NCBI GenBank assembly: GCA_964592195.1
Contig: CAZQEI010000001.1
Span: 52,885 to 113,007 of the forward strand
Origin: an uncultured Gammaproteobacteria bacterium
GTDB taxonomy: Bacteria > Patescibacteriota > Patescibacteriia > UBA11705
DNA: 60,123 nucleotides
Direction: 5' to 3'
Below, in pieces: positions 1,663-44,609 of the stretch. The notes beneath the pieces were generated by a model. The model was not told the DNA's origin. It was given only the letters and a program-made list of their open reading frames with translations, and made no database searches. A program made the translations under genes and the position numbers. Each line of letters begins with the position of its first letter. Position 1 is the stretch's first letter.

Positions 1663-1711
1663 TTGTAAAAGTTCAATAAATCAATATACTACAAAACTAA
1701 TCTTTTGTCAA
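1663..1711 (-). promoter_or_regulatory. sigma70 promoter plus boxA-like motif
   Basis: TTGACA(1711-1706)-17-TATATT(1688-1683), then GAACTTTTACAA (1674-1663). Confidence 0.65.
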
Positions 1712-1748
1712 TCAAAAAAGCAATTTCTAGCCTAATTCTAGATAATTA

Positions 1749-1778
1749 AAACAAAAAATCACCGCATTTACGGTGATT
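1749..1778 (-). terminator. intrinsic terminator
   Basis: AATCACCG-TAAATG-CGGTGATT followed by a T-run on the minus strand, just after the 1785 stop. Confidence 0.65.
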
Positions 1779-1784
1779 ATAATT

Positions 1785-2441
1785 TTACCAGTCGATTACG
1801 AGCACAACCACTCCATCTTGATTCGAATAGCGGCATCGGAACCCCTTAGCTTCAAAAACATCGGTCAAGATTGTTTCAGTAAAAATCAGCCTGGCCTGGA
1901 GATTATCGGGAAGAGATTGAGAAAAGGTTGAGCGCTCTCTTTGTGTCGTTATATCAACACGATGAATTTCACAAGTAGTCAGTTTTGATCGCTGCAATGA
2001 TTCAACCGAATTATTAAATCTAGCAATCATCATACTAGCATTAGCACTCTCTTGCTCATTGAACTTCTTGATGATTTCTTCCGTAGATTCGTCTCTAAAC
2101 TTTTCCTGAGCCGCTCGCAGATCATTTGCAGTGATCTTTACTCCAGTCTTTTCCTCCTCTTCAAAATATGTTCTGAAGTAATTATCAGTGTATGAATATC
2201 CCAACTTATCTTTATGTTCCAAAATTGTCTCGGCTCGAAGGCTGTGATAAATTCTTTGCGCCAATTCAACATTTGATTTACAATCAAACTTTCTCCGAAG
2301 CATATCCAAATCATGATCAGAAAATGAAATCTCTAGCCTACCATCATCACATTTGGAAACCGACAAAATACGTCGCACGAGACTTTCCACGGAAAGTTCA
2401 TTGTTACTGATCTTAAATTCTTTTCCTTTCAACTCAGCCAT
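1785..2441 (-). CDS. hypothetical protein (N-terminus related to the two upstream ORFs)
   Basis: 218 aa, AAGGAGG SD; MAELKGKEF...DGR resembles MANLNGKNV...DGR. Confidence 0.75.
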   Translation of the reverse strand: MAELKGKEFKISNNELSVESLVRRILSVSKCDDGRLEISFSDHDLDMLRRKFDCKSNVELAQRIYHSLRAETILEHKDKLGYSYTDNYFRTYFEEEEKTGVKITANDLRAAQEKFRDESTEEIIKKFNEQESANASMMIARFNNSVESLQRSKLTTCEIHRVDITTQRERSTFSQSLPDNLQARLIFTETILTDVFEAKGFRCRYSNQDGVVVLVIDW

Positions 2442-2469
2442 GGTGTGCCTCCTTGTCTGGAATGTTTAT

Positions 2470-2739
2470 TTAGGTGTGAAAAACACGATCAGCATAAGTG
2501 TATTTCGCTCCATTAGGTCTTTGTCCAGTTTTCTTTTCAACTGCGTCAGCCACAAGATCCATTAATACAAAGCCGACTCTTAATCCGAAATTTCTGACAA
2601 AAGTGTTTTCCTCATGAAAATCCAGTTCAAGAGTAACACCTCTGCCATCTCCAGCTGGTGATGCTTCGGAAACCAACTCTCCGATCTGAACGAATGTTTT
2701 TCCGGCAAATGATACATTTTTTCCATTTAGGTTTGCCAT
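2470..2739 (-). CDS. hypothetical protein, paralog of 2760-3068
   Basis: Start moved to ATG 2739 (AGGAGG SD); MANLNGKNVSFAGKTFVQIG. Confidence 0.7.
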   Translation of the reverse strand: MANLNGKNVSFAGKTFVQIGELVSEASPAGDGRGVTLELDFHEENTFVRNFGLRVGFVLMDLVADAVEKKTGQRPNGAKYTYADRVFHT

Positions 2740-2759
2740 AATTGGCCTCCTCTGTTTGT

Positions 2760-3068
2760 TCACTTACCGGATTTTGAATAGGTCTGAAAAACATAATAGC
2801 CTCGAGTGTTCAAGAAACAATGATAACAAAGACCACGCGGATTCTTCTCTTGATTTTTCAATGTGTTCACCAATAAGTTATAAATAAACCGACCAACACT
2901 TACACGCGCTCCAATCAAAGGCAAATACTGAAGCGCTTCAGCTTCGGAAATGATAAGCACGATCCAGCGACCATTCTTCGTGGGTGAAAACGAGGCGATC
3001 CAGGTTCCTATTTCATCCAAACTTTTGCCATCAAGAATAACTTCCTTGCCATTGATGTTTGCCATCAC
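2760..3068 (-). CDS. hypothetical protein, paralog of 2470-2739
   Basis: MANINGKEVILDGKSLDEIG; GGAGGAG SD. Confidence 0.7.
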   Translation of the reverse strand: MMANINGKEVILDGKSLDEIGTWIASFSPTKNGRWIVLIISEAEALQYLPLIGARVSVGRFIYNLLVNTLKNQEKNPRGLCYHCFLNTRGYYVFQTYSKSGK

Positions 3069-3448
3069 ACTCCTCCCTTCACTTCAACGACTCGTCCCAC
3101 CCCACGCCACAAGCCAATGACAGAAATACCAACCAAGAACATCATCAAGAAATGGGCAAACACCCAACCTCCAATAATCCAACCTTCATAATACGAAACA
3201 ATATAACTATAAAGAATAATTAGGGATACGACTAATCCCATTCCCAAATTTGGACGCTCTTTTCTTTCCGCTTTCATCCAACCAACAATTCCACCACCAG
3301 CCAATATACACAACGATTGTAACAAATTAATCGTATTGAAACTCTCAGGGATCAAATGAAAAACTCTACAATAAAATTCAGTCCAAAGTGTAATGCCAAT
3401 GACAAATTGAAAAAGCACAAGCTCAAAATTTGTTAATTTGCTTTTCAT
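3065..3448 (-). CDS. small ~4-TM membrane protein
   Basis: 127 aa hydrophobic; GGAGG SD; abuts the upstream stop. Confidence 0.75.
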   Translation of the reverse strand: MKSKLTNFELVLFQFVIGITLWTEFYCRVFHLIPESFNTINLLQSLCILAGGGIVGWMKAERKERPNLGMGLVVSLIILYSYIVSYYEGWIIGGWVFAHFLMMFLVGISVIGLWRGVGRVVEVKGGV

Positions 3449-3844
3449 TTAGGCCTCCGGTTGTTGTTTTTTGGTTAACCTATGATAAACATCAACACTG
3501 ATAAATCCAATAGCATTACCCGACAAGAACCATGCGTAGCAATAACAATTGAAAACTGCAGTTTCGGGAATTGGTTTCACTATCATTAAAGCTAAATTAA
3601 ATATTCCAATAGCAAAAGCAGTAGAGATAAAAATGATAAAACCGAAATTGTGATTCACCTCACGGACAAAGACTCCTGCCAAGCCTAACAGCAATAGAAT
3701 TGCTGAGATAACAATATCCAATGACTGGTCAATTTTAAATGGCACCAAGTGAGAAAAAAATACTCGACGAACAACTTCAAACACTATTGAAAAACAAATA
3801 ATCATAAGCCAATTGAAAGATTCTCTTCGCGTGAGCCGCTTCAT
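3449..3844 (-). CDS. small ~4-TM membrane protein
   Basis: 131 aa hydrophobic; GGGGGAG SD. Confidence 0.75.
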   Translation of the reverse strand: MKRLTRRESFNWLMIICFSIVFEVVRRVFFSHLVPFKIDQSLDIVISAILLLLGLAGVFVREVNHNFGFIIFISTAFAIGIFNLALMIVKPIPETAVFNCYCYAWFLSGNAIGFISVDVYHRLTKKQQPEA

Positions 3845-3871
3845 GTCTCCCCCTTGTTTGGGCTGTTTAGA

Positions 3872-3925
3872 TTGTCAACGTTCAGAACGATTTATGATGT
3901 TATAATTTTTCTTTGTTTTTGTCAA
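3872..3925 (-). promoter_or_regulatory. sigma70 promoter plus boxA-like motif
   Basis: TTGACA(3925-3920)-17-TAACAT(3902-3897), then GAACGTTGACAA (3883-3872). Confidence 0.65.
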
Positions 3926-4011
3926 TTTCAATCTGTGGCAGATGCATTCCTAGTACAGACGATTCACGAATCGTCTCATAATATCTTCAAATTGCCATAT
4001 GCCACCCAAAC

Positions 4012-4037
4012 CAAAAACCCCGCTGTTCGGGGCTTTT
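4012..4037 (-). terminator. gyrA intrinsic terminator
   Basis: AAAAGCCCCG-AACAG-CGGGGTTTTT on the minus strand. Confidence 0.7.
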
Positions 4038-4046
4038 GTATTTCAC

Positions 4047-6611
4047 CTAATCTTCTTTTGTATCTCGAGGAACCAAGGTAACACTAGCCACCTTATCCCC
4101 TGTTAACTTGAATCTCATTATTCTCACACCTTGCGTATCGCGACCAAGCACTGGTACGCTGGCTAAAGGCAGACGGATCACTTGACCCTTTTCGGAAATC
4201 ACCATGAGGTCGAAGTTCTTCACTTCATCTTTCAAGGTTATAAAGCTTTTAACTACTGGTCCGGTTTTTGACGTGACTTTTTGAGTTCGAATACCTGAAC
4301 CGCCACGATTTTGGACTTTGTAATATTGGAATTCTGAACGTTTACCATATCCATTTTCAGTAACCACAGAATTTTGCATGTTCTTGGATTCCTTGCCATC
4401 AATCTTAATCATTCCAACTACGAAATCACTACCCTTCAATCTAATACCACGAACACCGGCTGCCGCGCGTCCCATAGCTCGGACATCTTTTTCTTCGAAA
4501 CGGATTGATTGACCCTTGCTGGAAATAATTTGCAATTCACTATTACCGAGCGTTGGTTCTACCCATTCCAAGCGATCATCATCATGCAGTTTAATCGCAA
4601 TTAATCCGGAACGACGCACGTTTTCAAAATCTTCCACCGGCACTTTCTTCACCGTGCCTTTAACTGTGGTCATGAACAAGAATTTGAACGTGGCATTCTT
4701 ATTATCAAATGGCAAAATAGCAGAAACTTTTTCATTCGGTGCCAATGACAAGAAGTTCACAATCGAATTGCCCTTCGCAGTTCTCGATCCCAACGGCACA
4801 TCATAAGCTTTCAATTGGAACACGCGACCGCGAGTAGTGAAGTACAACAAATTGTCGTGAGTCATGGTAGTTAACAAAGTATCAACCACATCTTCTTCCT
4901 TCGTAGTTAAACCAATGACACCCTTACCACCTCGAGCTTGCGTCTTGAAAATATCTGGAGGTAAACGTTTAATGTAACCATCACGAGTTAAGAATATTAT
5001 TGTTGGTTCATTTGGTACCAAATCTTCTTGCTTAAATTCACCAATGTCGCCTTTTACAATCTTAGTTCGGCGATCATCACCGTATTTATCTTTCAATCCG
5101 GTCACTTCATCCTTGATCACTTGTAAAATCTTTTTCTCTGAAGCTAATAATTCTTTTAAATCTTTAATCAACGCTCGTTTTTCTTTTAATTCAGTTTCAA
5201 TCTTCAAACGTTCCAAGTTCGCCAAGTTTTGCAATCTCATTTCGAGAATGGCAGTGGCTTGCAAATCTGATAATTTAAACTTCTTCATCAACCCTTGTTT
5301 CGCAGCTTCACGATCTGGAGATTGTTTAATTAACTTGATAACAGCATCGATATTATCAATGGCAATTTGTAAACCTTCCAAAATATGTGCTCGCGCTTCC
5401 GCTTTATTCAAATCAAATTGCGTGCGTCGGCGAACTACGATCTGGCGGTGTTTAACAAAATATTCCAAAATTTCTTTTAAGTTCAAAATCTTCGGCTGTA
5501 AACCATCTACCAATGCCAACATGTTAACATTGAAACTGGCTTGGAGTGGAGTTAACTTAAACAAACGATTCAAAACTTTTTGTGGGAATGCATCTCGTTT
5601 CAAATCGATAACAATACGGACGCCGGACTTATCAGACTCATCACGAATATCTCGGATACCTTCGATTTTTTTATCTTTTACTAACTCAGCAATTTTTTCC
5701 AACAAGGTTGCTTTATTCACTTGATAAGGAATTTCATGCACTAAAATTTGGAATTGATTTTCTTTGGTTTCCGTGATTTCCGTTTTCGCCCGCATGATAA
5801 TCTTACCGCGACCGGTGGAATATGCGCTCTTAATTTCTTTAATATTATAAATAATACCGCCAGTGGGGAAATCAGGTCCCAAAACAAAATTCATCAATTC
5901 TTCCACTTCACATTCAGGATTAGCAATCAAATGAGAGATAGCATCGCAAATTTCTCGTAAATTATGTGGGGGAATATTCGTTGCCATACCCACAGCAATA
6001 CCTGAAGTACCGTTTAACAATAAATTCGGTAACAAGGCTGGCAAGACTTGAGGTTCTTTGTGTGAACCATCATAGTTGGGAATAAAATTAACCGTGTCTT
6101 TATCAATATCGCGTAACAATTCTTCCGCAATGCCCATCATCTTCGCTTCAGTATAACGCATAGCAGCCGCACCATCACCATCCATGGAACCGAAGTTACC
6201 TTGACCATTGATCAATGGATAACGCAAAGAGAATGTCTGCGCCATACGCACCATGGAATCGTAAACAGCAGAGTCACCATGAGGATGATATTTACCCAAA
6301 ACTTCACCGACCACAGTCGCTGACTTACGAAATCTCGCATTGGCGCGCAAACCCACGTTCCACATGGCATACAAAATACGACGATGAACCGGCTTCATAC
6401 CATCACGAACATCTGGTAACGCGCGAGACACAATCACGCTCATGGCATAGGCAATATACGAATTTTCCATTTCGGAAACAATCGGCTGATCAACCACATT
6501 AATGTGAGAGGTCTCAGTTTCAACATGAATATCTTCGTTGAATTTTTTCTTTTTTTCTTTTGAGTCATCGGCTGGTGACTGACTCATTTTCTTTTTTCTT
6601 TTCAATATCAT
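4047..6611 (-). CDS. gyrA: DNA gyrase subunit A
   Basis: [23 protein letters not shown], catalytic AAMRYTE, GyrA-box QARGGKG; start may be ATG 6587. Confidence 0.98.
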
Positions 6612-6626
6612 ATATGATTATAAATT

Positions 6627-7286: not shown

Positions 7287-7322
7287 ACAAACTATATTAA
7301 AGATTGATTAATAATGCTTACT

Positions 7323-7530: not shown

Positions 7531-8379
7531 TCAACTAACGAGAGCCTCGATTTGTTCATATTCTTCCATGGTCACACCGTACTGACCCAGCTCCATATAC
7601 GGATTGTTTTCCGCGTGGTAATCGGATCCACCAGTAATCAACATTCGGTGTTGCTTTGCCAGGTTCAATAGATAATCGCGACACGTTTCATTGTGATAAT
7701 GATTCGCTTCAAGTCCGGCAAGTCCCTGGTTCCTCATTTTATGAAAAATGGCATCGCATTCGACCGGATCCTTTTTATAAATCTTTCCAGTATGAGCCCA
7801 GAATGGCGCACCGTTCAAAGCGCGAATCATGGAAATGATCAATTCTGAATCAACCAACAACGATTTATCCGGCTCAGCAAAATACTTGCCACCGCGAATC
7901 ACGGTTGTGCGAGCATCGGCAAAAGTCATATTCTGGAATCTAATCAAATAGTTACGAAACCAAGTAATGAAAGCCGACGGTCCATGAGCGCCAACAATTT
8001 CCTTCATTTGTTCAACCGAAAGATTCGGACCACCGCTTCTGGCCAACGCTTCCAAATTCCCAGCCACTCGCTGATAATGATATTTCCAACTCTTGTCTTT
8101 CACAATGGATTCGATAATCTTCGACTTGGTCAAATCAATGCCATAGCCAAGAATATGCAGTTGCCGACCGTTGCAAACAGCGGTGAACTCAATCGCGGGC
8201 AATCCCCGCAAACCGAATTCCTTCAACGCCGCTTCAAACTCCGGCCAACCTTGCCAGATGTCATGATCAGAAAGACAAACCGCCTTCAGTCCACGTTCTT
8301 TGGCTCGTTTAACAATCTCGCGAGGTGAGATCGTGCCATCAGAGTAATAAGAATGAGTATGCATGTCCGCTTCGAACAT
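7531..8379 (-). CDS. PHP-domain metal-dependent phosphoesterase (TrpH-like)
   Basis: DMHTHSYYSDG, SDHD, HILGY, AH, GGSDYH. Confidence 0.92.
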   Translation of the reverse strand: MFEADMHTHSYYSDGTISPREIVKRAKERGLKAVCLSDHDIWQGWPEFEAALKEFGLRGLPAIEFTAVCNGRQLHILGYGIDLTKSKIIESIVKDKSWKYHYQRVAGNLEALARSGGPNLSVEQMKEIVGAHGPSAFITWFRNYLIRFQNMTFADARTTVIRGGKYFAEPDKSLLVDSELIISMIRALNGAPFWAHTGKIYKKDPVECDAIFHKMRNQGLAGLEANHYHNETCRDYLLNLAKQHRMLITGGSDYHAENNPYMELGQYGVTMEEYEQIEALVS

Positions 8380-8394
8380 GAAGGCTCCTTTTGT

Positions 8395-8450
8395 TGGTTA
8401 AAGGACATTTGCGTATTTGCTAATTTAATGTAATTTTTATCAAAAGTCAA
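8395..8450 (-). promoter_or_regulatory. sigma70 promoter plus boxA-like motif
   Basis: TTGACT-17-TAAATT, then GTCCTTTAACCA (8406-8395). Confidence 0.6.
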
Positions 8451-8557: not shown

Positions 8558-8794
8558 CTATGCATCCAGATCATCAACATCATCAGGATCAGCAGGCGTG
8601 CGAGTGGTCACGACCTTGGGCCGAGTAAAAAGCTGCACAACATCGTGAATCAAAGCCGCACCAATACCAACCAAACCTAGAATAAACAAATTATTGAGAG
8701 TTTCAGGAGAAGCATTTTGCATAAACTGTCGTCCTTCTGGAAAAAATAGAAACACTACCAGAATACCAATTCCGCCAAGCACATACTGAAGCAT
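8558..8794 (-). CDS. small 2-TM protein, paralog of 8839-9141
   Basis: ML..VLGGI...HD.V pattern shared with neighbour; GAGG SD. Confidence 0.7.
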   Translation of the reverse strand: MLQYVLGGIGILVVFLFFPEGRQFMQNASPETLNNLFILGLVGIGAALIHDVVQLFTRPKVVTTRTPADPDDVDDLDA

Positions 8795-8838
8795 AGGGCC
8801 TCGCTTTCACGCCTCTACATATGAGGCGAGTCTGTTTG

Positions 8839-9141
8839 TCAGTTGAAACTCACATAACATCCATTTCCCTTTTTGAGAATATTCTCATCAGGAGGGGCAA
8901 CATCCGGTGACAACTCAGTCGTTGAATTCAAAACAGGACAACGACAATTGCTCATCTTCTCAGCAATCACATAATCATGGAAACATGCGGCACAGATTGC
9001 CACCAAACTGACCACCAAGAAACTTACATGAAAGAATCTATATTCCTTGGCAAACAAAGATCTGGCAAAGATTGCAATCAAAACAACTGCGGTACAAATT
9101 CCACCCAGAACCGAATGCAACATCATGCCATTTTCAGCCAT
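8839..9141 (-). CDS. small 2-TM protein
   Basis: AAGGAGG SD; MLHSVLGGI...FHDYV. Confidence 0.7.
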   Translation of the reverse strand: MAENGMMLHSVLGGICTAVVLIAIFARSLFAKEYRFFHVSFLVVSLVAICAACFHDYVIAEKMSNCRCPVLNSTTELSPDVAPPDENILKKGNGCYVSFN

Positions 9142-9292
9142 AGCCGCCTCCTTTCCGTCTGCACCGTTTTACACGGTTGGTGGTAAAGACTTCTCGTAAA
9201 GCTTCAAAACACACTGTTGCTGTTCTTCCTCAAAAAGAATACCAGAACATAGAAAACAGTATCAATAATAGCCATTTTTCCTCCAGTGTTTG

Positions 9293-9346
9293 TTGTAAAA
9301 GAGCAAAAGGATTATTATATTTATCATTTTAATTAGAACATGTCAA
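9293..9346 (-). promoter_or_regulatory. promoter plus near-canonical boxA
   Basis: TTGACA (9346-9341); TGCTCTTTTACAA (9305-9293), one mismatch from the E. coli boxA TGCTCTTTAACA. Confidence 0.6.
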
Positions 9347-9614: not shown

Positions 9615-10793
9615 ATGACAAAAGTTACCACTACCGTTGCCAATACTGTCATGGACAATTTATTGGCCAAAGATGAAAATGAAATCAAACCTCTCGAGGT
9701 CGGCCAGATGGTCAAAGGCACTGTTATCAGCTCCACTAAAACTGAAATGCTCGTCGATATTGGCGGCATCAATACCGGTATTATTCGCAAAAAAGAATTA
9801 TTTGTCGATGATGCCACTGAATTAAATTTAAATCCAGGCGACGAAATCGAAGCCATGGTTATCGACCCTGAAAATGAAATTGACATGGTTGAATTATCCT
9901 TGCGCTTTGCCGGTCATGCCAAGGCTTGGGATGCTTTATCTCAATTGCGAGATGCCAACACTATCAATAAAGCTCGTATCCTCGATGCCAACAAAGGCGG
10001 TTTATTGGTCAGCATCAATGGTGTCAACGGTTTCTTACCAGTTTCCCAATTGAACCCAGAACATTATCCTCGCGTTCCAGGTGGCGATAAGAATCGTATT
10101 TTAGAAAAATTGAAAAGCTATGTCGGTGAAGACTTTGAAGTCAAAGTTCTTGACGTAGATGAAGAACAAAATAAATTAATCGTTTCTGAAAAAGCGGCTT
10201 GGGAAGAATCTCAAAAAGATGTTCTCGACAAACACAAAGTTGGTGAATTAATCGAAGGCTCCGTGACTGCAGTCACCGACTTCGGCGTGTTCGTCCGCTT
10301 TGGTGAAAACCTCGAAGGTTTGGTCCACATTTCAGAATTAGCTTGGCAAAGAATTGACGACCCGAATGATTTATTCAAAGTCGGTCAAAGCATCCAAGCT
10401 GAAGTCATCAACATTGAAGGTTCCAAAATTTTCTTGTCAATCAAAAAATTGCAAAAAGATCCTTGGACTAACATTGAAGAAAAATACAAGATCGGTCAAA
10501 TGGTTGAAGGTAAAGTCATCAAAGCTAACCCATTCGGTTTATTCGTCGAATTGGACAATGAAATTCATGGTTTGGCTCACATTTCTGAACTTTCAGACAA
10601 ACCGGTTACCGATGTTTCTACTATTGCCAAACCTGGCGACACCATCTCTTTCCGAATTGTTTCTATTGAACCAAAAGAACATCGATTAGGTTTGAGTTTG
10701 AAGCCGGAAGAAAAAAAGACTGAGAAGTCCGCCGAAGGCGGATCCGCCTCCGGCGGAAAAGAGGAGAAAGAAGAAGAAGTAAAAGCTGAATAA
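9615..10793 (+). CDS. rpsA: 30S ribosomal protein S1 (4 S1 domains)
   Basis: ANKGGLLV...GFLPVSQL, DFGVFV...EGLVHISELAW, PFGLFVEL...GLAHISEL; ATG 9615 preferred over TTG 9579. Confidence 0.95.
   Translation: MTKVTTTVANTVMDNLLAKDENEIKPLEVGQMVKGTVISSTKTEMLVDIGGINTGIIRKKELFVDDATELNLNPGDEIEAMVIDPENEIDMVELSLRFAGHAKAWDALSQLRDANTINKARILDANKGGLLVSINGVNGFLPVSQLNPEHYPRVPGGDKNRILEKLKSYVGEDFEVKVLDVDEEQNKLIVSEKAAWEESQKDVLDKHKVGELIEGSVTAVTDFGVFVRFGENLEGLVHISELAWQRIDDPNDLFKVGQSIQAEVINIEGSKIFLSIKKLQKDPWTNIEEKYKIGQMVEGKVIKANPFGLFVELDNEIHGLAHISELSDKPVTDVSTIAKPGDTISFRIVSIEPKEHRLGLSLKPEEKKTEKSAEGGSASGGKEEKEEEVKAE
10728..10757. repeat. 30-bp double palindrome in frame inside rpsA (SAEGGSASGG)
   Basis: TCCGCCGAAGGCGGATCCGCCTCCGGCGGA, exactly 10 codons. 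Confidence 0.9.
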
Positions 10794-10887: not shown

Positions 10888-10940
10888 TTGACAATTTCCA
10901 ACCTTTAGTTTAATATAATCAATCAATCGGACATTGACAA
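10888..10940 (+). promoter_or_regulatory. sigma70 promoter plus boxA-like motif
   Basis: TTGACA-17-TAATAT, then GGACATTGACAA (10929-10940). Confidence 0.65.
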
Positions 10941-10972: not shown

Positions 10973-11536
10973 ATGTCTAATCCCACATATTACGACAACC
11001 TACCAGCCCTGGGGATTATGTTCATCCTTTGCTCATGTTTGGCGGTTACTAGTGGTTATGAATATTATAGAAAGAATAAGATGAGAACTTTCAGTTTTTT
11101 TACCACCATGTTATTTTCTGCTTTGCAATCACTGGCATTGATTGCGTATGCCTACTTCACCGACAACCCGGCATTTCGCTGCCCGATCACTATCAACTTA
11201 GCCATTATTTTACTGGTCGAATTCTTGATCCTGTTTGAGATTCAAGCTGTCATCAAACGCAAACTGCTGATTTGCTGGCGGCATGAAAACAAACTTCCAC
11301 TGACCATTTCCCGTTATCAAATGTCGCTCGACAGTTTAATGTGGCTGGGATTCAGTGTCATCGTGGCTATCTTACTTTCATCCATTACCTTCAACCAATT
11401 CTGGCCAGCCATGGCGCTGTTCCTGCCTTATGCTCTGGGCTTCTTGTTTTTCCATACTAAACTTTCACTGATATATTTACTGTATTTGAACGAAAAGCAT
11501 TTGCGAAAAGACAAAAAAAGTCAGGAGGCAGCATGA
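10973..11536 (+). CDS. membrane protein, paralog of 11533-12060
   Basis: ATG 10973 with GGGAGGG SD; about 5 TM segments. Confidence 0.75.
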   Translation: MSNPTYYDNLPALGIMFILCSCLAVTSGYEYYRKNKMRTFSFFTTMLFSALQSLALIAYAYFTDNPAFRCPITINLAIILLVEFLILFEIQAVIKRKLLICWRHENKLPLTISRYQMSLDSLMWLGFSVIVAILLSSITFNQFWPAMALFLPYALGFLFFHTKLSLIYLLYLNEKHLRKDKKSQEAA

Positions 11537-12060
11537 ACGCAATTTGGTTCATTCTTGTCAGCATCGTAACTGTCATTTTTCTAATCTATTCGCTTTATCA
11601 GTATTATTACATTAAAGATGAAAAAGCTTTGCATATTGTTGTCATCTCAATTGCGAGCGCTGTGGCAATTATTACCACTGTATTACTTGGCCAAACAGAC
11701 GCCTACGATATTCCTTTAAGCGCTGTCCTTATCTCTCTGGGAGTAATAATGATCTATATGTTTAGAGAATTCTATCTGGCGAAAAAGAACGGGACACTGA
11801 AAACCTTGATTGACAAAAACAATATGAACTATCCCATTAAAGGTAAATCTGTTATTCTCTGGCTCGCGTTCGGATCGATTATCCCAATAATGGTCGTGGC
11901 AATATTCGCATTCTTTGGAACTCTCTCCAGTAATATCTTTTCCCAAGCATTTGAACATGGCGTTAATTTCTCCTATTTTTTCTTCTTTATTACAATAGAA
12001 CCAATCTGTATGAGCCTCCCCGCCTACCTCTGTCAACGCTTTGTAAAAGAAAATTCTTAA
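11533..12060 (+). CDS. membrane protein
   Basis: AGGAGG SD, ATGA overlap, about 5 TM segments. Confidence 0.75.
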   Translation: MNAIWFILVSIVTVIFLIYSLYQYYYIKDEKALHIVVISIASAVAIITTVLLGQTDAYDIPLSAVLISLGVIMIYMFREFYLAKKNGTLKTLIDKNNMNYPIKGKSVILWLAFGSIIPIMVVAIFAFFGTLSSNIFSQAFEHGVNFSYFFFFITIEPICMSLPAYLCQRFVKENS

Positions 12061-12189: not shown

Positions 12190-12708
12190 ATGAACGGATT
12201 TGTGAACCTGCGATTTCCCTATTCAATGTTCAGAGTGAACAAGGTTGGATTACCGACAGGAAGAAGTTCAAACTTGATCTCTAAAGAAGAGGCCGTGGTT
12301 AGAACTAAATTCAAAAAGACTCCTTTTGCTACGTATTTTCCCATTTACAAACTGAATAACACCAACCAAATTCGAGTTCATCAAGATTATTTTGAAGTGC
12401 AAGTCCCTCTTAAGTTCAATCCTGCTACTGGAAAACTAATGTTTGATTTCGATGTTGAGAAGTTCACACCCCTGGATGTTTTCATTTTTTGCAATGCCCA
12501 TGTCATCCCTGCCTACGGAGAAAAAATGGACTGCGGTGTGGTAAATCACGAAGATGGCACTGTTCTCATTTATCACAATCCCAGCGAAAAATTCAACAGC
12601 CGCATGGCTTTGGAAATCAGCTCCAAGACTATGGCTGGTGCAACAAATCTGCTTCTTGGTACTTTTGAACGGCGCATCAAACCCGCCAATCCCTGGTTTC
12701 AGGCATAA
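12190..12708 (+). CDS. hypothetical protein
   Basis: ATG 12190 with GGAGGG SD; terminator GCTTCC/GGAAGC-T6 at 12721-12744. Confidence 0.7.
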   Translation: MNGFVNLRFPYSMFRVNKVGLPTGRSSNLISKEEAVVRTKFKKTPFATYFPIYKLNNTNQIRVHQDYFEVQVPLKFNPATGKLMFDFDVEKFTPLDVFIFCNAHVIPAYGEKMDCGVVNHEDGTVLIYHNPSEKFNSRMALEISSKTMAGATNLLLGTFERRIKPANPWFQA

Positions 12709-12934: not shown

Positions 12935-14515
12935 TTAAATCAAATCACCAACATCAATCGGTTTGTCGCAGAAGTCGCAACAATATGAGTTGTCAGCGAG
13001 TCGACGGAAACGAGGGAGCACATGCTCATTAAACTCAGGACGAGTAATGCAACCGCCCTTGGGGACTCCGGTCTTTTGATCGTAAACAATATTTGAACAT
13101 TTACCAATACCTTCAATCAACGCCGGCCGTCTCAGATCGAACTTACCAGCCACTTTTCCTTCACGAATATCATTCCACGTCGTCAACTCTCCACAAATTT
13201 TCACATCACCAGACAAAGCGGCCAAGACTTTTCTCTCGCGAGGATTCGGTGACCAATTTTCCACCATCAACAAACCTTTAACTTTCGACGGATCACTGCG
13301 CTTGCGCACATTCCCGCCGCGCCAAACATGATTTTCCAAATTAAATTCTTTCACCAAACGAGGCACAATACCAACCGGCAGATGATCAATCACCGTGCCC
13401 CAATCGCGAATCGGCAAGATACTATATTCATATTCAACCGCTTTAGGGGTAATAATTCTGGGGAATTCAAATTCATCATGAACCTCATTTTTCACTTTTG
13501 GTTCACCTTCGAAATCATCACCCCATCCTAGAAAGAAATTACCGAAAATCGACATGCGAGTCGGCACTCCACCACCAGCTTGATTAAAGTAGAATTGATA
13601 TACAGTGTCGTCCAAATCAGGAGCAATTTCAGGAAAATATTTGTTGATCGGGAGGGGATGAAGCAAGAAGAAACCAGGTTTAACATATTGCATATGCTCT
13701 GCTCTGAAATTACAATCTCGTCTGGCCTTTTCCAACTTTGAAGTATCAGAAATTCTTTTGGTTTGAAACCGCAGGGAGACGGCAAAATCAGCGTTTCTTA
13801 ATATTTTTTCATCTAAGCCACTCACTTGTTCATAGGTGCTTCCGAGCGACTCCACCAATCGGCAATACTCTTTTGGCATTTGGAATTCATCATGGGCAAC
13901 AAAATAGAAATGCACACCGTGTGAGCCAAAACTTTTTACCATGGAGTGAGGGACCCGACCATAAAGCAAATCACCGGACAAAATAATATTAAGGCCTTTT
14001 AACGAATATTCATTTCTTGCCAATCTACCGGTCTTCTTCAAAATGGCAAACAAATCCAGCAAAGTTTGAGACGGATGCTCATGCATACCATCGCCACCAT
14101 TCACCACGCCGACATTATGCTTGGCCATTATTTCAGATACATATTGCGCTGCGCCATCCAAATTATGTCTCATGACAATCCCTTGAGCTCTCATCACTCG
14201 CAACATTTCCAAGGTATGACGCAACGATTCACCTTTTTCCAAAACCGAAGTGCCTTCCAACGATCCAAAACCGCTCACGGAAAAACCTAAACGTTTTAAG
14301 GCTTCTTCGGAACTCAGTCTAGTGCGAGTACTATCTTCAAAAAAACAAGAGGCAAACATATGATACTCGTTTTCAGGACAAGCAAACGGTGGCACCAATC
14401 TTTTACGCAAAGCTATCTGCTCTTCTGCCCAGGCCGCTTTCTTCATCAAATGCCGCACTTCATCCGGACTTAAATCGTCAATGGAAATCAGCGATCTGCC
14501 CTTGAATGGATTCAA
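12935..14515 (-). CDS. pyrB: aspartate carbamoyltransferase, fused catalytic + regulatory (PyrB-PyrI)
   Basis: FFEDSTRT, GESL, RH, HEHPSQTLLD, GDL..GRV.HS, HPLP; C-terminal PyrI motifs GTVIDHL and Zn site C..N...CIT...CDFC; TTG start with GGGAGG SD. Confidence 0.9.
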   Translation of the reverse strand: MNPFKGRSLISIDDLSPDEVRHLMKKAAWAEEQIALRKRLVPPFACPENEYHMFASCFFEDSTRTRLSSEEALKRLGFSVSGFGSLEGTSVLEKGESLRHTLEMLRVMRAQGIVMRHNLDGAAQYVSEIMAKHNVGVVNGGDGMHEHPSQTLLDLFAILKKTGRLARNEYSLKGLNIILSGDLLYGRVPHSMVKSFGSHGVHFYFVAHDEFQMPKEYCRLVESLGSTYEQVSGLDEKILRNADFAVSLRFQTKRISDTSKLEKARRDCNFRAEHMQYVKPGFFLLHPLPINKYFPEIAPDLDDTVYQFYFNQAGGGVPTRMSIFGNFFLGWGDDFEGEPKVKNEVHDEFEFPRIITPKAVEYEYSILPIRDWGTVIDHLPVGIVPRLVKEFNLENHVWRGGNVRKRSDPSKVKGLLMVENWSPNPRERKVLAALSGDVKICGELTTWNDIREGKVAGKFDLRRPALIEGIGKCSNIVYDQKTGVPKGGCITRPEFNEHVLPRFRRLADNSYCCDFCDKPIDVGDLI

Positions 14516-14549: not shown

Positions 14550-14601
14550 TTGTTAACGAACCAAATTATCTATATATTAGGTTATTTAGTGGTTAAGTCA
14601 A
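14550..14601 (-). promoter_or_regulatory. sigma70 promoter plus boxA-like motif
   Basis: TTGACT-16-TAATAT, then GTTCGTTAACAA (14561-14550). Confidence 0.6.
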
Positions 14602-15076: not shown

Positions 15077-16594
15077 ATGTATTATGCCATTATTGCGGTC
15101 GTCGCAATGGGACTTGGGCTCCTCTTTGGATATTTTTTAAGAAAGAAAGTGGCGCAATCAGAAGCGAACTCAATCGAGGCCAAAACCATCGCTATGGTGG
15201 AAGAAGCTAAGAACAAGGAACGCGAAATATTGCTCCAAGCCAAAGATAAAGCTATCAAGATCATTGACGAGGCCAAACAAGAAGAACATACTCGCAGACA
15301 AGAAATGCAAAATTTGCAACATCGTCTAGAAAAGCGAGAAACCCTCTTTGATCAAAAATTGTTAGATCTCGAAAACAAGCAAACAAAACTTCAAGACAAG
15401 GCTAAAGAGATCGAAGAGATCAAAGAACAAATCAAACAAATCAAGACTGATCAATTGGACAAGCTCCAAAAGATCGCCGGTATGAATAAAGAAGGCGCGT
15501 TAAAAGTTCTCATGGATAATGTGGAACGAGAAAACGAAGAAACTTTATTGAACCGCATTAAAAAGTTAGAAACAGAATCAGTGACCGAATTGGAACGCCG
15601 AGGCAAGTTAACTCTCGCCAACGTGATTCAACGATGCTCAGTCAATCACTCCACTGAAATGACCACTACCACCATTGATATTCCAAATGATGAAATGAAA
15701 GGACGAATCATCGGTCGTGAAGGTCGAAACATTCGTACTATTGAACAATTGACCGGTGTAGAAATCGTAGTTGATGATACTCCAAATGCCATCACTATTT
15801 CCGGCTTCTCCCCTATTCGTCGTCATGTGGCCAAGAAAGCTTTGGAAAAATTAATCGTCGATGGTCGCATTCATCCAGCCAAAATTGAAACTGCTGTGGA
15901 AGATGCGAAAAAAGAAATCGCTGTGGAAATCCAAAAAGCTGGTGATGATGCTGCTTATGAAGTCGGTATTGCTGGCATGGACAACAAGATCATTCAAATC
16001 ATCGGACGTTTAAAATACCGAACCAGTTACGGACAAAATGTTTTGCAACACACAATTGAGGTTGCCACTTTGTCCGCATTATTAGCCGAACAATTAGGTG
16101 CTGATGTGAACTTAGCTCGCAAGGCTGGTTTCTTGCACGATATTGGTAAAGCGGTGGATCATGAAATCCAAGGTACTCACGTGGAAATCGGCGCTGATAT
16201 TTGTCGCAAGTTCGGTATCTCCGAAGACATTATCAAGGCAGCCATGCAACACCACGAAGATCATCCGGAAACTTTGGAAGGTATCATTATCAAAACTGCT
16301 GATGCCATTTCCGGCGCTCGTCCTGGTGCTCGTAAAGACACTTATGAACGCTACATTCAACGGTTAACCGAACTGGAAACTTTAGCCAAGACTTTCGAAG
16401 GCGTAGACAAAACTTTTGCCATCCAAGCCGGTCGCGAAGTTCGCGTGTTTGTGAAAGCTGATGTAGTCAGCGATTTACAATCAGAAAAGATTGCCAAAGA
16501 AATCGCCAAAAAGATTGAAGCTGAATTGAAGTATCCGGGTGAAATCAAAGTCACCGTCATTCGTGAAAATAGAATTATTGAATACGCTCGATAA
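15077..16594 (+). CDS. rny: ribonuclease Y
   Basis: N-terminal TM, coiled coil, KH (KGRIIGREGRNIR), HD domain (RTSYGQNVL.H, LHDIGK). Confidence 0.97.
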   Translation: MYYAIIAVVAMGLGLLFGYFLRKKVAQSEANSIEAKTIAMVEEAKNKEREILLQAKDKAIKIIDEAKQEEHTRRQEMQNLQHRLEKRETLFDQKLLDLENKQTKLQDKAKEIEEIKEQIKQIKTDQLDKLQKIAGMNKEGALKVLMDNVERENEETLLNRIKKLETESVTELERRGKLTLANVIQRCSVNHSTEMTTTTIDIPNDEMKGRIIGREGRNIRTIEQLTGVEIVVDDTPNAITISGFSPIRRHVAKKALEKLIVDGRIHPAKIETAVEDAKKEIAVEIQKAGDDAAYEVGIAGMDNKIIQIIGRLKYRTSYGQNVLQHTIEVATLSALLAEQLGADVNLARKAGFLHDIGKAVDHEIQGTHVEIGADICRKFGISEDIIKAAMQHHEDHPETLEGIIIKTADAISGARPGARKDTYERYIQRLTELETLAKTFEGVDKTFAIQAGREVRVFVKADVVSDLQSEKIAKEIAKKIEAELKYPGEIKVTVIRENRIIEYAR

Positions 16595-16631: not shown

Positions 16632-16864
16632 ATTTATGCGATTACCATTCCCATCAATCTTATCGGAACTCGCAAAGGAATTAGACTACCTACTCTTCGC
16701 CCTTTATTCTCTTTATCTCTTTATCCTCTTTATTCTCTCCTAAAGAATTTGGCAAAAACTAGCAAATTTGATACAATACGAATATTCGAATCAGTTTCGA
16801 ATGTGTACGAATTATTATAAGATTTGTAATTCGAAAAAATTCGTATTTAATTCGTATATTCGTA

Positions 16865-34331: not shown

Positions 34332-34610
34332 TTATTCTTTATGTTCCTTCATCTTTTGCCTCAACTCTGATCTTTCAAACATTTTTCTCAAAGCTAAATA
34401 ATGTAACATTTCCAACAAACCATAAGTGAGAATCGATATCCGAACTAATCCCCAATCCACGCTTTTCTCTATCTTAAAATCAAAATATCCAAAAACCATA
34501 AACACAATAAAGACAACAATCAAAAAGGTGAACTGATAATCGCTGGCTTTCAGCCGAATCAGCAATTTTTCCTCATCAGTCAGAACTACACTTGGCTTAC
34601 TTTTTGTCAT
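34332..34610 (-). CDS. small 2-TM protein
   Basis: ATG 34610 with AAGGAG SD; LTDEEK resembles LTPDEEQ in the neighbour. Confidence 0.65.
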   Translation of the reverse strand: MTKSKPSVVLTDEEKLLIRLKASDYQFTFLIVVFIVFMVFGYFDFKIEKSVDWGLVRISILTYGLLEMLHYLALRKMFERSELRQKMKEHKE

Positions 34611-34899
34611 TTTTAACTCCTTGTCCTGGGTTTGTTCGAACACAATGCATGTAGTTAATCAAATATGCAACATAGAACAACAACTGTCCAGCCAGTAGAA
34701 ATCCAAAACTAAATTTGCTATGTAAACATTCCCAAAAATCAACTGCGTGATAGCTTTCCCACAATGACGCAATGATCCACAACCATAAATATATACAAAT
34801 TTGCTTCATGCAACCGTTATAAACATACTGTTCTTCGTCTGGTGTTAACGCTCGATATTTCTTGTGTAACCGTTTAACAAACCTAGCGTGCAGTCCCAT
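34597..34899 (-). CDS. small 2-TM protein
   Basis: AAGGAG SD. Confidence 0.65.
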   Translation of the reverse strand: MGLHARFVKRLHKKYRALTPDEEQYVYNGCMKQICIYLWLWIIASLWESYHAVDFWECLHSKFSFGFLLAGQLLFYVAYLINYMHCVRTNPGQGVKNDKK

Positions 34900-34917
34900 T
34901 GTATCTCCTTTTTGATG

Positions 34918-35442
34918 TTAATAGCTTCTGCTGCCTCTTGGCCAATCTCTCTGATAATGATGGCCACCTTTGTAAAATTTCCATTTAATGCGACGAACAT
35001 CGTAAGCTTCAGTGTAATCTCTTGGTAACCAATATTTTTTCGGATCAGAATAATACGACACATCTGGAAATTCAAAATATATCTGCTGAGAACAAAAATA
35101 CGGATGATTACCTCTTTTTCTCAAGACTTCAGTAGAATTTTTCAGATTCCACATTTTCAAAGCAAAGGATTTATCACCTGCCCATTTTAACAAGTTTAAC
35201 ACATCAATGCCTGATCCCGGTAAAAAAACATCTTCGAAATGACTGAATTCATGCAATTGATCAAATTGAATAGTTTTAATCGATGGGTACTCAGTTTTTG
35301 GTAAGTCAACTTTCGATTTTTCTACTTTCACAACCCCTTTTTTACAATAGTTTGGCGATTCCATAAACTCCACAACAACTATACAAAGAACAATAATAAT
35401 AGGTATTCCAATTATTCCAAAAAAAAACCACAGAATAATCAT
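34918..35442 (-). CDS. hypothetical protein with N-terminal TM
   Basis: ATG 35442 with GGGAGG SD. Confidence 0.7.
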   Translation of the reverse strand: MIILWFFFGIIGIPIIIVLCIVVVEFMESPNYCKKGVVKVEKSKVDLPKTEYPSIKTIQFDQLHEFSHFEDVFLPGSGIDVLNLLKWAGDKSFALKMWNLKNSTEVLRKRGNHPYFCSQQIYFEFPDVSYYSDPKKYWLPRDYTEAYDVRRIKWKFYKGGHHYQRDWPRGSRSY

Positions 35443-35483: not shown

Positions 35484-35545
35484 TTGTCAACGAACCATCC
35501 CCACTCTGGACCACCCATTATATCAATCTTTTGTCACTTTGTCAA
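35484..35545 (-). promoter_or_regulatory. consensus sigma70 promoter plus boxA-like motif
   Basis: TTGACA-17-TATAAT, then GTTCGTTGACAA (35495-35484). Confidence 0.75.
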
Positions 35546-37105: not shown

Positions 37106-37279
37106 TTGAACTCCGCGGGGTTGTTGGTCTGTGAAAAGGACTGAGTGAATGTTAACAAGAAAAAAGTAAGAAAGCAAGAAAACAATAAATCAACAAAGCA
37201 AAAAAGTAAAGCTTAATTAGAGATTGCTTCGTCACTCCGTTCCTCGCAAAAAAGAGCACTCTTCTGTCCCGAGGGGATC

Positions 37280-40509: not shown

Positions 40510-40510
40510 C

Positions 40511-42148: not shown

Positions 42149-43799
42149 GAATAAAACCCTGGCCAATATTAATAATCGAATAATCAACTTGCGCTGTTCC
42201 CATTTTATTTAGACCAACTCCTCGCGTTTCAATTGTTACAGGGGTAATGTTCGTTCGTGAAGAATGATTGACTCGACACCCAAAGGTTTCATTCACCCAC
42301 CAACCTGGAATAGGAGTTTCTAGATTTTCAACTTGATACCAACCATTTTCATCAATCAAATTACTAAATGTCGGACAGATAACCTCTGTCTCATTTTTTT
42401 TAAATAAATAATAATGACCGTAATTATTAACCAAAGAAAAATTCTTTAAAAGTTTAACTATATTCGCTTTTCCGGTTGAATAATATTGCGAGTAAATAGC
42501 ATGATCTTTGTAGGTAGATTCATAATCTAACCACTCACGATCGTTAATCAAAAGATAGCTCAAATCTGACGGCAGTTCGTAGCGGCCACGTCCAAACTGT
42601 TTGACCTCGAGAAAGGCGTAATTCAAGCTGTAAACCTCATTTTGAGTCGCCAGAGGCGCTAAAAACTCTGAACTGGCAAGCACTTTTGAATTTTCGGGAA
42701 TTAACTGTAACATTGAGTTAATTGACTGCTTTTCTTGAGTACTTCTAGTTAACGTTTGCCAATCTAAAACTGGACTTAAAATTATGAAGCAATACACCGT
42801 GGCTAAGACTAAAACGAAACCAAAGAATTGTTGTTTTTCTTTCGTTGAGACTGCAAATAATTCCATTACCCCCAAATAAATTATTGGGTAGAAAAACGCG
42901 CTGTAGTGCATCTGCCAAACCAAAGAACCTTGACCACCAAGCAAGGCGAATTCCAAGTAAATTAGAATTAAAGGAATCAGCCAGCGACCGCGAAATAGGA
43001 TTAAAAAACCAACCGGTAACAATGCGCCGATAATTAATTCCACTTGATTGAGATTAAACAAATTGGCAATAATGTTTTCATAATATCCGAAGAATTTATT
43101 GCCGCCATTATTGATGATTGAAATTATTCCCATTGAAACAGCGAAATATGCGCCACTTAAAATTACCGTCAACAAACTGAATTTACTACCATGCAACTGT
43201 CGATTGTTTTTTGTTAACAAGAACAAACCAAGCATGCCGGTTAATAATGAAACATCCTCACGGAGAAATAAACAAAAAAGCAAAAAAACAATAAAACAAG
43301 AAAGCAATTTTTTCTCGAGAGACCAGAACAGCAACATAATCCCTAGGGGCAACAAACATAGTGGAGAGAATTCAAAAACTGACTGATTCCACAAATATGG
43401 GTTGAATAAATAAGCCAAACCTATGAGTAACGATAGGCTGGGCGACAGTTTTTTCTTGGCGAGAACGAAAAACAGGACTCCGCTTAAAACTAAAAACAAA
43501 ACTTGTTCAATAATCAATAATAAGGGAGACTCAAACAACAAAAAATCCGGTAACCATAACAACAAAATCGGTGAAAAATGGTCGCCCAAGTAATTTGTTT
43601 GTTGAATTGATGAATAGAAAAAGTTGCCTTGACTGGAATGTTTCAATACATCGGTAAAGATTCCCAAGTCTAAGGCGTTATATTGAAAATTAAAATATTT
43701 AAACGTTACAATTACTGACAACAAAACAAATACCAAAATGGCGATTGAATAAAATATCTTTTGATAATGTTTGTTAATAAAAACTGAAAGTTGTTTCAT
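42126..43799 (-). CDS. DUF2079-like membrane protein (putative GT-C)
   Basis: DLGIF, NYLGDHFSPIL, REDV, HYS motifs. Confidence 0.7.
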   Translation of the reverse strand: MKQLSVFINKHYQKIFYSIAILVFVLLSVIVTFKYFNFQYNALDLGIFTDVLKHSSQGNFFYSSIQQTNYLGDHFSPILLLWLPDFLLFESPLLLIIEQVLFLVLSGVLFFVLAKKKLSPSLSLLIGLAYLFNPYLWNQSVFEFSPLCLLPLGIMLLFWSLEKKLLSCFIVFLLFCLFLREDVSLLTGMLGLFLLTKNNRQLHGSKFSLLTVILSGAYFAVSMGIISIINNGGNKFFGYYENIIANLFNLNQVELIIGALLPVGFLILFRGRWLIPLILIYLEFALLGGQGSLVWQMHYSAFFYPIIYLGVMELFAVSTKEKQQFFGFVLVLATVYCFIILSPVLDWQTLTRSTQEKQSINSMLQLIPENSKVLASSEFLAPLATQNEVYSLNYAFLEVKQFGRGRYELPSDLSYLLINDREWLDYESTYKDHAIYSQYYSTGKANIVKLLKNFSLVNNYGHYYLFKKNETEVICPTFSNLIDENGWYQVENLETPIPGWWVNETFGCRVNHSSRTNITPVTIETRGVGLNKMGTAQVDYSIINIGQGFILSRQIQK

Positions 43800-43801
43800 A
43801 C

Positions 43802-43975
43802 TAAGTAGATTATATCATGTTCATCCTTGACACTAAAGTGTCTGATATAAATTTTTTATAGGTTAGTGCTACGAATGACGTATTTGCTACGAATCAACGA
43901 ATACGGAATACTTTTGATAAATTGTCAGTTTAATTAATTATATTCGTAGATACGTAGCTGATTTGTTATTGGTAG
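43802..43975. repeat. ~173-bp direct repeat, left copy
   Basis: Near-identical to 44610-44782. Confidence 0.9.
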
Positions 43976-44022
43976 GAACAAAAAAGCTCCGGGCGGTTAC
44001 CAGAGCTTGAGACATCGTCGCT

Positions 44023-44472
44023 TTATGACGAGTAAATTTCTTTGATATACATTTTACGAGAGAACCTACCAATTACGAAATCCACTTTCGCGGGAGAACC
44101 ATTAATTGCGCTGTCATAACAATCCTGACTCACACCAACCGAATCTTGTAGTCCATCAACTTCAACACAGACAGACCAACTAGCTGGACAATAAATCGGC
44201 GTCATTGTAGTAACCCCATTACAGGTATTGCTAACATAGGTAGTATGTGCAGGTGAGTAACTTCTGCCAACGATTTGACCTAATCCTTGCATTCGAGGCA
44301 AAAACCAAGAATCAACAGCAATGAAGATCCCCCAAAAAATCATCGCCAGACAAAATAGGCTCACTAAAACGATGATAACAAAGAGGACCGTACCGAGAGG
44401 CCAATCCTTTGCCATCCTGATCATGTCTTCAATAAACCATCTCAAACTCGGATGATTGGCTAAATCTAGCAT
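44023..44472 (-). CDS. hypothetical single-TM protein in a repeat-flanked cassette
   Basis: AAGGAGG SD; own promoter TTGACA-17-TATATT (44547-44519), GCACCTTCACAA motif, terminator 43980-44008. Confidence 0.75.
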   Translation of the reverse strand: MLDLANHPSLRWFIEDMIRMAKDWPLGTVLFVIIVLVSLFCLAMIFWGIFIAVDSWFLPRMQGLGQIVGRSYSPAHTTYVSNTCNGVTTMTPIYCPASWSVCVEVDGLQDSVGVSQDCYDSAINGSPAKVDFVIGRFSRKMYIKEIYSS

Positions 44473-44609
44473 CCTCGCCTCCTTTGTGAAGGTGCTGGGT
44501 TCGCAAAACTAACTAATAAATATATAACATTTAAAAACATTTGTCAACAGCAAGTATCCAAATTTTATTTAATTTTAGATAAAAATATACACAATAATCT
44601 AATTCATTA

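Follow-up and report, generated by a model that had tools for sequence, protein, structure and literature searches.

The window analysed here, a 60,123-nt stretch corresponding to C1:52885-113007 (contig and positions) of a 1.39 Mb genome in 40 contigs (38.7% G+C, 96% complete), carries downstream of several of its promoters a 12-nt motif that resembles boxA. In rRNA synthesis and in the biology of phage lambda, boxA and the Nus factors are textbook elements, boxA being a single-stranded RNA signal by which NusB and ribosomal protein S10 (NusE) recognize nascent rRNA. GyrA is 63-67% identical to proteins from metagenome-assembled genomes labelled Patescibacteria, Parcubacteria, Kuenenbacteria and Falkowbacteria, and the host is therefore a bacterium of the candidate phyla radiation (CPR); sequencing runs of DNA that contain the window stretch carry the label freshwater metagenome. 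Pfam recognized a set of core genes in the window (gyrA, S1, RNase Y, YmdB, HU, PBP1, RuvC, YebC, PGI, RNase III, nusB and groEL) together with an array of T4SS-pilin paralogues, and left many open reading frames (ORFs) without a family, while Rfam at its gathering thresholds found only a tRNA in the window.

A first-pass annotation had listed nine sites in the window at which a promoter, the motif and a Shine-Dalgarno (SD) sequence follow one another. We scored these with a strict pattern, GNNCNTTNACAA, and with a weight matrix of fixed seed built from promoter-associated, mRNA-derived sites of the genome; the fixed seed was kept because both an open ZOOPS expectation-maximization run and free iteration of the matrix drifted to diffuse A/T-rich motifs. 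The sites, and the nusB gene of the same window, are as follows (promoter mismatches out of 12 positions).

1663..1674, minus strand: boxA-like motif GAACTTTTACAA, 11.7 bits; promoter 1683-1711, 1/12 mismatch; 8 nt after the -10
3872..3883, minus strand: boxA-like motif GAACGTTGACAA, 17.8 bits; promoter 3897-3925, 2/12 mismatches; 13 nt after the -10
8395..8406, minus strand: variant motif GTCCTTTAACCA, 12.1 bits; promoter 8422-8450, 3/12 mismatches; 15 nt after the -10
9293..9304, minus strand: boxA-like motif GCTCTTTTACAA, 15.7 bits; weaker promoter, 3.5/12 mismatches
10929..10940, plus strand: boxA-like motif GGACATTGACAA, 11.3 bits; promoter 10888-10916, 2/12 mismatches; 12 nt after the -10
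14550..14561, minus strand: boxA-like motif GTTCGTTAACAA, 19.6 bits; promoter 14574-14601, 3.5/12 mismatches; 12 nt after the -10
35484..35495, minus strand: boxA-like motif GTTCGTTGACAA, 19.9 bits; perfect promoter 35517-35545, 0 mismatches; 21 nt after the -10
37130..37141, minus strand: listed site GTCCTTTTCACA, rejected as a member, -8.9 bits; promoter with 5/12 mismatches
44484..44495, minus strand: boxA-like motif GCACCTTCACAA, 11.5 bits; promoter 44519-44547, 1/12 mismatch; 23 nt after the -10
54164..54697, minus strand: nusB (PF01029, 6e-37), aligning with solved NusB chains

Eight of the nine listed sites were borne out, with matrix scores of 11.3-19.9 bits, promoters deviating at 0-3.5 of 12 positions and a distance of 8-23 nt between the -10 and the motif (7-23 nt for all listed sites of the window). 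The ninth, at 37141, was dropped for its score of -8.9 bits and its poor promoter (5 mismatches). An SD and a start codon follow all nine, the strict pattern matches exactly at seven of them and at the coordinates given, and a scan with the weight matrix found no further motif site within the window. Shuffling gave an expectation of 3.04 strict matches for the window (standard deviation 1.67), and seven were reached in 2 of 100 shuffles; the window alone is therefore only weakly significant.

No Pfam family was found for the three-ORF unit 369-1626 behind the site at 1674 (GGAGG SD; start codon 36 nt past the motif), for the five-ORF unit 1785-3844 behind 3883, whose end is marked by a terminator-like hairpin at 1757-1778, for ORFs 10973-11536 and 11533-12060 behind 10929, for the unit 34332-35442 behind 35495 (a GC hairpin, then GGGAGG), or for the gene 44023-44472 behind 44495, where AGGAGG follows the motif immediately. 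The site at 8406 (AAGGA SD, start codon 15 nt past the motif) heads a PHP-domain gene, 7531-8379, and that at 14561, followed by a small hairpin and GGGAGG, heads an OTCase-like gene, 12935-14515. At 9304, GGAGG and ATG open a hydrophobic 23-codon ORF (9204-9275, minus strand), which may be a small membrane peptide or a leader peptide, and ORF 8839-9141 comes next.

Three further features of the window lie apart from the motif. Between 44832 and 49454 on the minus strand, a T4SS-pilin domain (PF18895) was found in every one of eight ORFs in a row, the product of one being 503 aa long. Runs of the words CGAAT and TACGAAT, which are palindromic repeats, stand directly after some promoters, for instance around 16740-16860 (plus strand) between the RNase Y gene and ymdB. 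Finally, one metatranscriptome run yielded exact short contigs from window positions 1792-1942, 8567-8717, 8736-8886, 8989-9159, 10643-10790, 12386-12687 and 15282-15432; such contigs give neither transcript starts nor strand, possibly stem from DNA carry-over and have no bearing on the motif.

Across the whole genome the association of promoter and motif is strong. The strict motif occurs at +4 to +24 of 57 of the 277 promoters matching TTGAC-N18-TAnnnT, as against none for the reversed motif and about 0.3 expected from the genome-wide motif frequency. Counted differently, 25 of the 133 strict matches on both strands sit 5-23 nt past the -10 of one of 304 promoter-like sites. The weight matrix gave 211 matches at 11 bits, compared with 87-122 in second-order Markov genomes, and 85 compared with 18-22 at 14 bits; roughly 65-110 sites in the genome are real. 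Among the 85 sites of at least 14 bits, 42 have both a promoter and an SD-led ORF, nine lack the ORF, 13 lack the promoter and 21 lack both. Hexamers enriched after promoters, counted with no prior motif, were topped by AACAAC and ACAACC. The two halves of the motif co-occur, each predicting the other: anchoring on TT.ACAA alone (80 promoters) recovered G1 in 69 and C4 in 61, and anchoring on G..C.TT alone (118 of the 277 promoters) recovered A9 in 92, C10 in 73, A11 in 85 and A12 in 88.

These counts bear on the simplest explanation, that the motif arises by chance or from the base composition of AT-rich strong promoters, or that its copies descend from one duplicated promoter cassette. We regard this as very improbable: the window count by itself (seven against 3.0 expected) would agree with it, but the genome-wide count (57 against 0) and the co-occurrence of the motif halves do not, and the motif is conserved across the order and in homologous leaders (see below). 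In a high-confidence set of 63 leaders with promoter, motif, SD and ORF, similarity between leaders is limited to stretches of 15-28 nt lying mostly over the motif; the leaders are therefore not copies of one cassette, and a repeated mobile promoter cassette was ruled out.

The motif keeps close to the promoter. In the 63 leaders it starts 5-23 nt past the -10, in 59 of them within 5-16 nt, and at genome promoters no motif was found to start between -33 and +4 relative to the -10. It occurs in one orientation only, with no match of its reverse complement downstream of promoters. The sharp lower bound at +5, near the expected transcription start, would make sense if the complete 12-mer had to enter the RNA. 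Downstream, the median distance is 25 nt from the motif to the start codon and 13 nt from the motif end to the SD, the latter ranging from 0 to more than 70 nt; 56 of the 63 motifs lie within 50 nt of the start codon, and genome-wide 78 matrix matches are followed by an SD and a start within 50 nt. The spacer behind the motif is A/C-rich (A 37%, C 32%, G 17%, T 14%), and among the 30 spacers that are 15 nt or longer, 22 contain a small hairpin (-4 kcal/mol or lower) with no U-tail.

Some leader features recur beyond the motif itself. The word TAGTTA is enriched 4-9 nt after the -10 genome-wide (16 against 3.4 expected) and may mark a preferred start-site context. A hairpin of the form CCGCCUCC-loop-GGAGUCGAGRC, with an anti-SD-like CCUCC inside, separates the motif from the true SD in the leaders of four unrelated genes (C1:154480(-), C27:1982(+), C1:14518(-) and C10:9003(+)), and a second one, CCACCUUCGC-N-UAAAGCU-N-CGGUGGA, occurs in three leaders here (C1:135024(-), C1:28825(-) and C14:11240(-)) and in one of relative G025, which belongs to another genus. 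Rfam at gathering score returned nothing for either hairpin. At C7:2763 (plus strand), a 15-bit motif is followed by a leader of ~95 nt up to GAGGAG-ATG.

With placement tied so closely to the promoter, the motif might act in DNA, either as an asymmetric operator at which a global regulator binds just past the promoter, or as a non-template-strand element read by sigma or NusG for a promoter-proximal pause; parallels for the latter would be ops with RfaH and, in B. subtilis, the T-rich motif at which NusG causes pausing. The geometry speaks for such an element, 59 of 63 sites standing 5-16 nt from the -10 while the distance to the SD spans 0 to more than 70 nt, as do the TTCTTT-like runs within many copies and the second half of the motif, TTNACA, which looks like a -35 hexamer. 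That last likeness is weak on inspection. Position 8 is A in 33 of the 63 sites (G in 21, C in 6, T in 3), and a -10-like hexamer lies 16-18 nt downstream of TTNACA in 2 of 63, as compared with 237 of 911 TTGACA occurrences in the genome. A second -35 or tandem promoter, under which the motif would precede the true transcription start, was rejected on this count; by promoter geometry the motif would lie within the transcribed region. Against a DNA element in general stand the strict single orientation with no overlap of the promoter, the spacing to the -10, whose variation over 18 nt suits neither an operator nor a fixed pause, and the best-conserved positions G1, C4, T6 and T7, which define boxA rather than a T-run. 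A search of the genome with PF02357 gave one match, so that the genome has one NusG-family gene and no specialized paralogue was found. Overall we judge a DNA-level element to be quite unlikely.

The consensus of the motif, G[TAC]TC[N]TT[AG]ACAA, agrees at the level of sequence with boxA, falling between the E. coli form UGCUCUUUAACA and the B. subtilis form AUGAUCUUUGAAA (PMC13753749); exact GCTCTTTAACAA is present in the genome. In the crystal structure of Stagno et al. 2011 (PMC3177189, cited here in part), NusB/NusE read boxA nucleotides 1-8, and of the differences between the E. coli and Aquifex elements, at positions 1, 6 and 9, those at 6 and 9 were judged likely insignificant. In the numbering of that part of the paper, these two correspond to the free positions 5 and 8 of the motif. 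Conversely, C4 and U6, which were mutated to inactivate the suhB boxA in the part of Baniulyte et al. 2017 drawn on here (PMC5725501), are the most invariant motif positions in this genome.

The same core stands in the leaders of stable RNAs. The 16S leader of this genome (contig C7) carries GAACATTTACAT 11 nt after the -10 of a consensus promoter. The 23S gene, whose 5′ end lies at the end of contig C1 (1-640, outside the window) and was located there separately after a whole-genome Rfam search had returned no 23S rRNA match, has a leader with its own consensus promoter ~300 nt upstream, then a hairpin and then GATCGTTGAAAA. The 16S and 23S genes thus placed on C7 and C1 appear to be separate transcription units, although the assembly breaks at both genes and linkage is possible. 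Five of 16 relatives' 16S leaders score at least 7.7 bits, and by eye most of 13 leaders from the same order show G[AT][AT]CNTTNACA just past the promoter. Beyond rRNA, a tRNA unit (contig C23) starts with the motif behind a perfect promoter, and on contig C5, at about 51600-53200, a 1.5 kb unit of 52-64% G+C with no long ORF on the transcribed strand opens with a perfect TTGACA-17-TATAAT promoter followed by a 17.8-bit motif. Comparison with the genome's own rRNA leaders therefore upholds the resemblance to boxA that had been proposed from the window: the core is common to the genome's 16S and 23S leaders and to relatives' 16S leaders, and its use is of regulon scale.

The arrangement is widespread in the order and scarce in the rest of the phylum. 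Promoter and motif together were found in 24 of 25 same-order genomes (G001-G025), 2-27 times each with 0-1 for the control, and 0-4 times each in 15 genomes from other families of the class. Across the phylum, 75 of 300 genomes had at least one match and none more than seven, as compared with 57 in this genome. In five relatives, an SD and an ORF were found downstream of all 20 sampled sites. For the OTCase-like gene, three same-family homologues (40-41% identity) show GTTCTTT by eye shortly past a TTGAC-type box; their leaders score 10.4, 8.5 and below 7 bits with the matrix, and the rest of the leader and the 3′ half of the motif differ. No motif match was found in the leaders of three distant homologues (26-29% identity).

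The first-pass annotation had described the genes behind the motif as scattered ORFan cassettes, to be doubted if the motif were as frequent before core genes. It is rarer before genes of known families: a Pfam match at 1e-4 was obtained for 26 of 94 first genes behind a motif and for 75 of 141 length-matched others (Fisher p = 1.5e-4), a comparison from which one 1626-aa motif gene was left out for crossing tiles and whose controls also take in genes lying further down motif units. Orphans are over-represented behind the motif but do not make up the whole set, so that the ORFan description holds in part only; known families with a motif include MetRS, PurA, a PurF-like amidotransferase, the OTCase-like protein, a DsbD-type protein, TerC, an ABC transporter, a Ser/Thr kinase and two sigma-70 region-4 proteins, and the tRNA unit and the non-coding unit are likewise included. 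The annotated link with strong SDs was confirmed, these following 46 of 50 motif promoters and 96 of 165 others, with a start picker that favours SDs in both groups. A hydrophobic N-terminal stretch was found in 29 of 95 motif genes and 235 of 1238 others. Motif genes are slightly richer in G+C (40.5% against 38.6%, p = 6e-6); GC-richness as the trait that calls for boxA was set aside, as the difference fades among strong-SD genes (40.4% against 39.3%, p = 0.08). The only MetRS gene of the genome (C3:124298-125986) carries the motif and has homologues at 1e-30 in just three of 30 relatives, which suggests a displaced or divergent synthetase type.

The tight link with strong SDs (46/50 against 96/165) would also be in line with the motif being an RNA element read by another factor, such as S1 or the RRM protein encoded in the window, and serving as a translation enhancer, a stand-by site or a 5′-end stabilizer against RNase Y/J, its likeness to boxA then being partial convergence. 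The A/C-rich, G-poor spacers would suit such a role, genes for RNase Y, S1 and a small RRM protein lie within the window, the motif is found on no Nus gene, and its 3′ ACAAC[CA] is strongly kept though NusB/NusE read only nucleotides 1-8 in the crystal structure, as far as the cited part of the structural paper goes (PMC3177189). However, the core heads the untranslated 16S, tRNA and non-coding units and is found in the leader of the likewise untranslated 23S rRNA, and homologous leaders keep the boxA-like 5′ half while the 3′ half drifts. An enhancer acting by pairing of the motif with 16S rRNA was rejected, since the motif does no better than its shuffled versions (duplex energies between -8.3 and -11.8; means for the shuffles between -7.7 and -13.3). 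We consider reading by another RNA factor unlikely.

Several of the factors that go with a boxA are encoded. The presence of nusB in the window, noted from the start, is confirmed by PF01029, and the protein keeps the KFVNGVL helix with the equivalent of E. coli F122, i.e. the boxA-binding helix. NusA, a single NusG and S10 are encoded in the genome. For SuhB the only candidates are two weak Inositol_P-family genes (about 48.5-48.9 and 44.7 bits), and a clear orthologue is not evident. The Rho_RNA_bind domain was found in none of 41 genomes (this one and 40 relatives, 36 of them at least 90% complete), and the rho model reached 42 bits in this genome, on ATP synthase genes, against a cut-off of 509. 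Thus, of the four factors rho, nusA, nusG and suhB that had been singled out for checking, nusA and nusG are present, Rho was not found and SuhB lacks a clear counterpart. The antitermination originally envisaged falls in its classical anti-Rho form: since no Rho was found in the lineage, shielding transcripts from it cannot be what the motif does.

Taken together, the motif is probably a boxA, i.e. a loading site for NusB-S10, used at regulon scale. In the mechanism that we propose, boxA would stand at, or within ~16 nt of, the 5′ end of ~60-100 transcripts and would leave RNA polymerase within the first 20-35 nt of the transcript. NusB-S10 would bind the 5′ part of the motif (G-N-U-C-N-U-U; predicted target RNA, 5′-GUUCGUUAACAACC) and join NusG and NusA on the polymerase, so that the 5′ leader would stay looped to the elongating enzyme as in rRNA operons. 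Two outputs may follow. The first would be an elongation complex of the rRNA-operon type that resists pausing and intrinsic termination. Such modification is suggested by the same promoter-proximal place of the motif on rRNA, tRNA, the non-coding unit and mRNAs, and by its distance to the promoter being tighter than that to the SD; the rRNA-operon complex is described as also interfering with intrinsic termination (PMC13753749). If the motif is boxA, we see it as nearly an even call whether this output is the primary one.

The second output would concern mRNAs, whose SD, at a median of 13 nt behind the motif, would lie inside the loop, making initiation depend on the pool of free NusB-S10 and tying motif genes to ribosome synthesis, by analogy with E. 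coli suhB. There, according to the part of the suhB study used here, a boxA within 50 nt of the start codon represses translation, even with up to 100 nt inserted before the SD; this repression, which works through the loop between boxA and polymerase, is itself independent of Rho (PMC5725501) and is the one effect of a boxA close to an SD that experiments have established for mRNAs. This geometry, with boxA within ~50 nt of the start and near the SD, is found in 56 of the 63 leaders. Again given a boxA, translational control may be the primary output, a possibility to which we give somewhat less than even weight, with a small remainder for some other output.

Several observations weigh against reading the motif as a boxA that works through Nus factors. 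With the mRNA-derived matrix the genome's own 16S site, whose last base is T, stays below 6 bits, the 23S site GATCGTTGAAAA has A for C at position 10, and positions 2-3 of the motif are freer than in known boxA elements. The 3′ ACAA is strongly kept here, yet it was not seen to be read by NusB/NusE in the crystal structure, as described in the part of that paper cited above (PMC3177189). In the genome-wide matrix results no site precedes nusA, nusB, nusG or rpsJ; one Inositol_P-family gene has a motif (20.6 bits), but it is a weak member of its family (48.9 bits) and has no homologue at 1e-20 in 40 relatives. Autoregulation in the manner of suhB, considered as a candidate, was accordingly not seen. 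As Rho was not found, the best-known role of Nus complexes falls away, and terminator-like hairpins still mark the ends of units with a motif, hardly a sign of strong antitermination. Moreover, rRNA would have to share NusB with ~100 strong sites on mRNAs, and to our knowledge there is no precedent for a cell tolerating this.

Compared with rRNA-operon boxA elements, both that served in E. coli by the complex of NusB, NusE/S10, NusA, NusG, SuhB and S4 and that of B. subtilis, the motif is a near-identical 12-nt sense-strand element past a strong promoter; the core is shared by the genome's own 16S and 23S leaders, and NusA, NusB, NusG and S10 are encoded. The system differs in its ~60-100 units, mostly protein-coding with strong SDs, in the motif's frequent location at the very 5′ end with no boxB hairpin before it, and in a lineage in which Rho was not found and a clear SuhB orthologue is not evident. 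The closest likeness on mRNA is the suhB boxA, which also sits near the SD, within 50 nt upstream of the start codon of a protein-coding gene, and which has a regulatory part to play outside rRNA; there, however, the block to translation leads on to termination by Rho, and the targets are typically Nus genes, neither of which applies here (PMC5725501, in part). The survey in the cited part of that work counted 0-7 exact boxA matches near gene starts per gamma-proteobacterial genome, or 407 in 314 of 940 genomes, as against the 78 matrix matches here, although the criteria differ and the numbers are not strictly comparable (PMC5725501).

Other known leader signals share single traits with the motif. 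As in lambda nutL and nutR, a small hairpin follows boxA in about a third of the leaders; unlike them, these hairpins vary in form and are often lacking, an N-like protein is not known in this genome, and the sites are chromosomal and genome-wide rather than of phage. Like ops with RfaH, LoaP or UpxY, the motif is a short leader signal that prefers accessory, poorly conserved gene sets, whereas ops works in the non-template DNA strand and depends on a paralogue of NusG, and here the sequence is boxA-like and the NusG family has one gene. Outside rRNA and phage, the material cited describes boxA for only a few cellular targets, among them suhB, a toxin gene and CRISPR arrays, and the supplementary tables of the same paper may list more targets (PMC5725501). 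A literature search, conducted partly by title and opening of the abstract, found no link of boxA or Nus factors with CPR or Patescibacteria. Within the literature searched, this is a known signal with a known machine, at a scale and in a Rho-less setting not described.

A free-living, Rho-less lineage with boxA after a fifth or more of its strong promoters would show a role of Nus factors beyond protection from Rho. More tentatively, and short of what we would call probable, NusB-S10 might be a global regulator in this order, with boxA on up to ~40% of strong-promoter transcripts and with rRNA, tRNA, long non-coding RNAs and ~80 mostly orphan, strong-SD mRNAs joined in one Nus-dependent programme. 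If true, expression of accessory, fast-evolving genes would be tied to ribosome synthesis, and the system would represent the first genome-scale Nus regulon and a function of Nus factors that does without Rho. CPR bacteria are not yet genetically tractable, and such a system would offer a concrete way into how their large sets of orphan genes are expressed.

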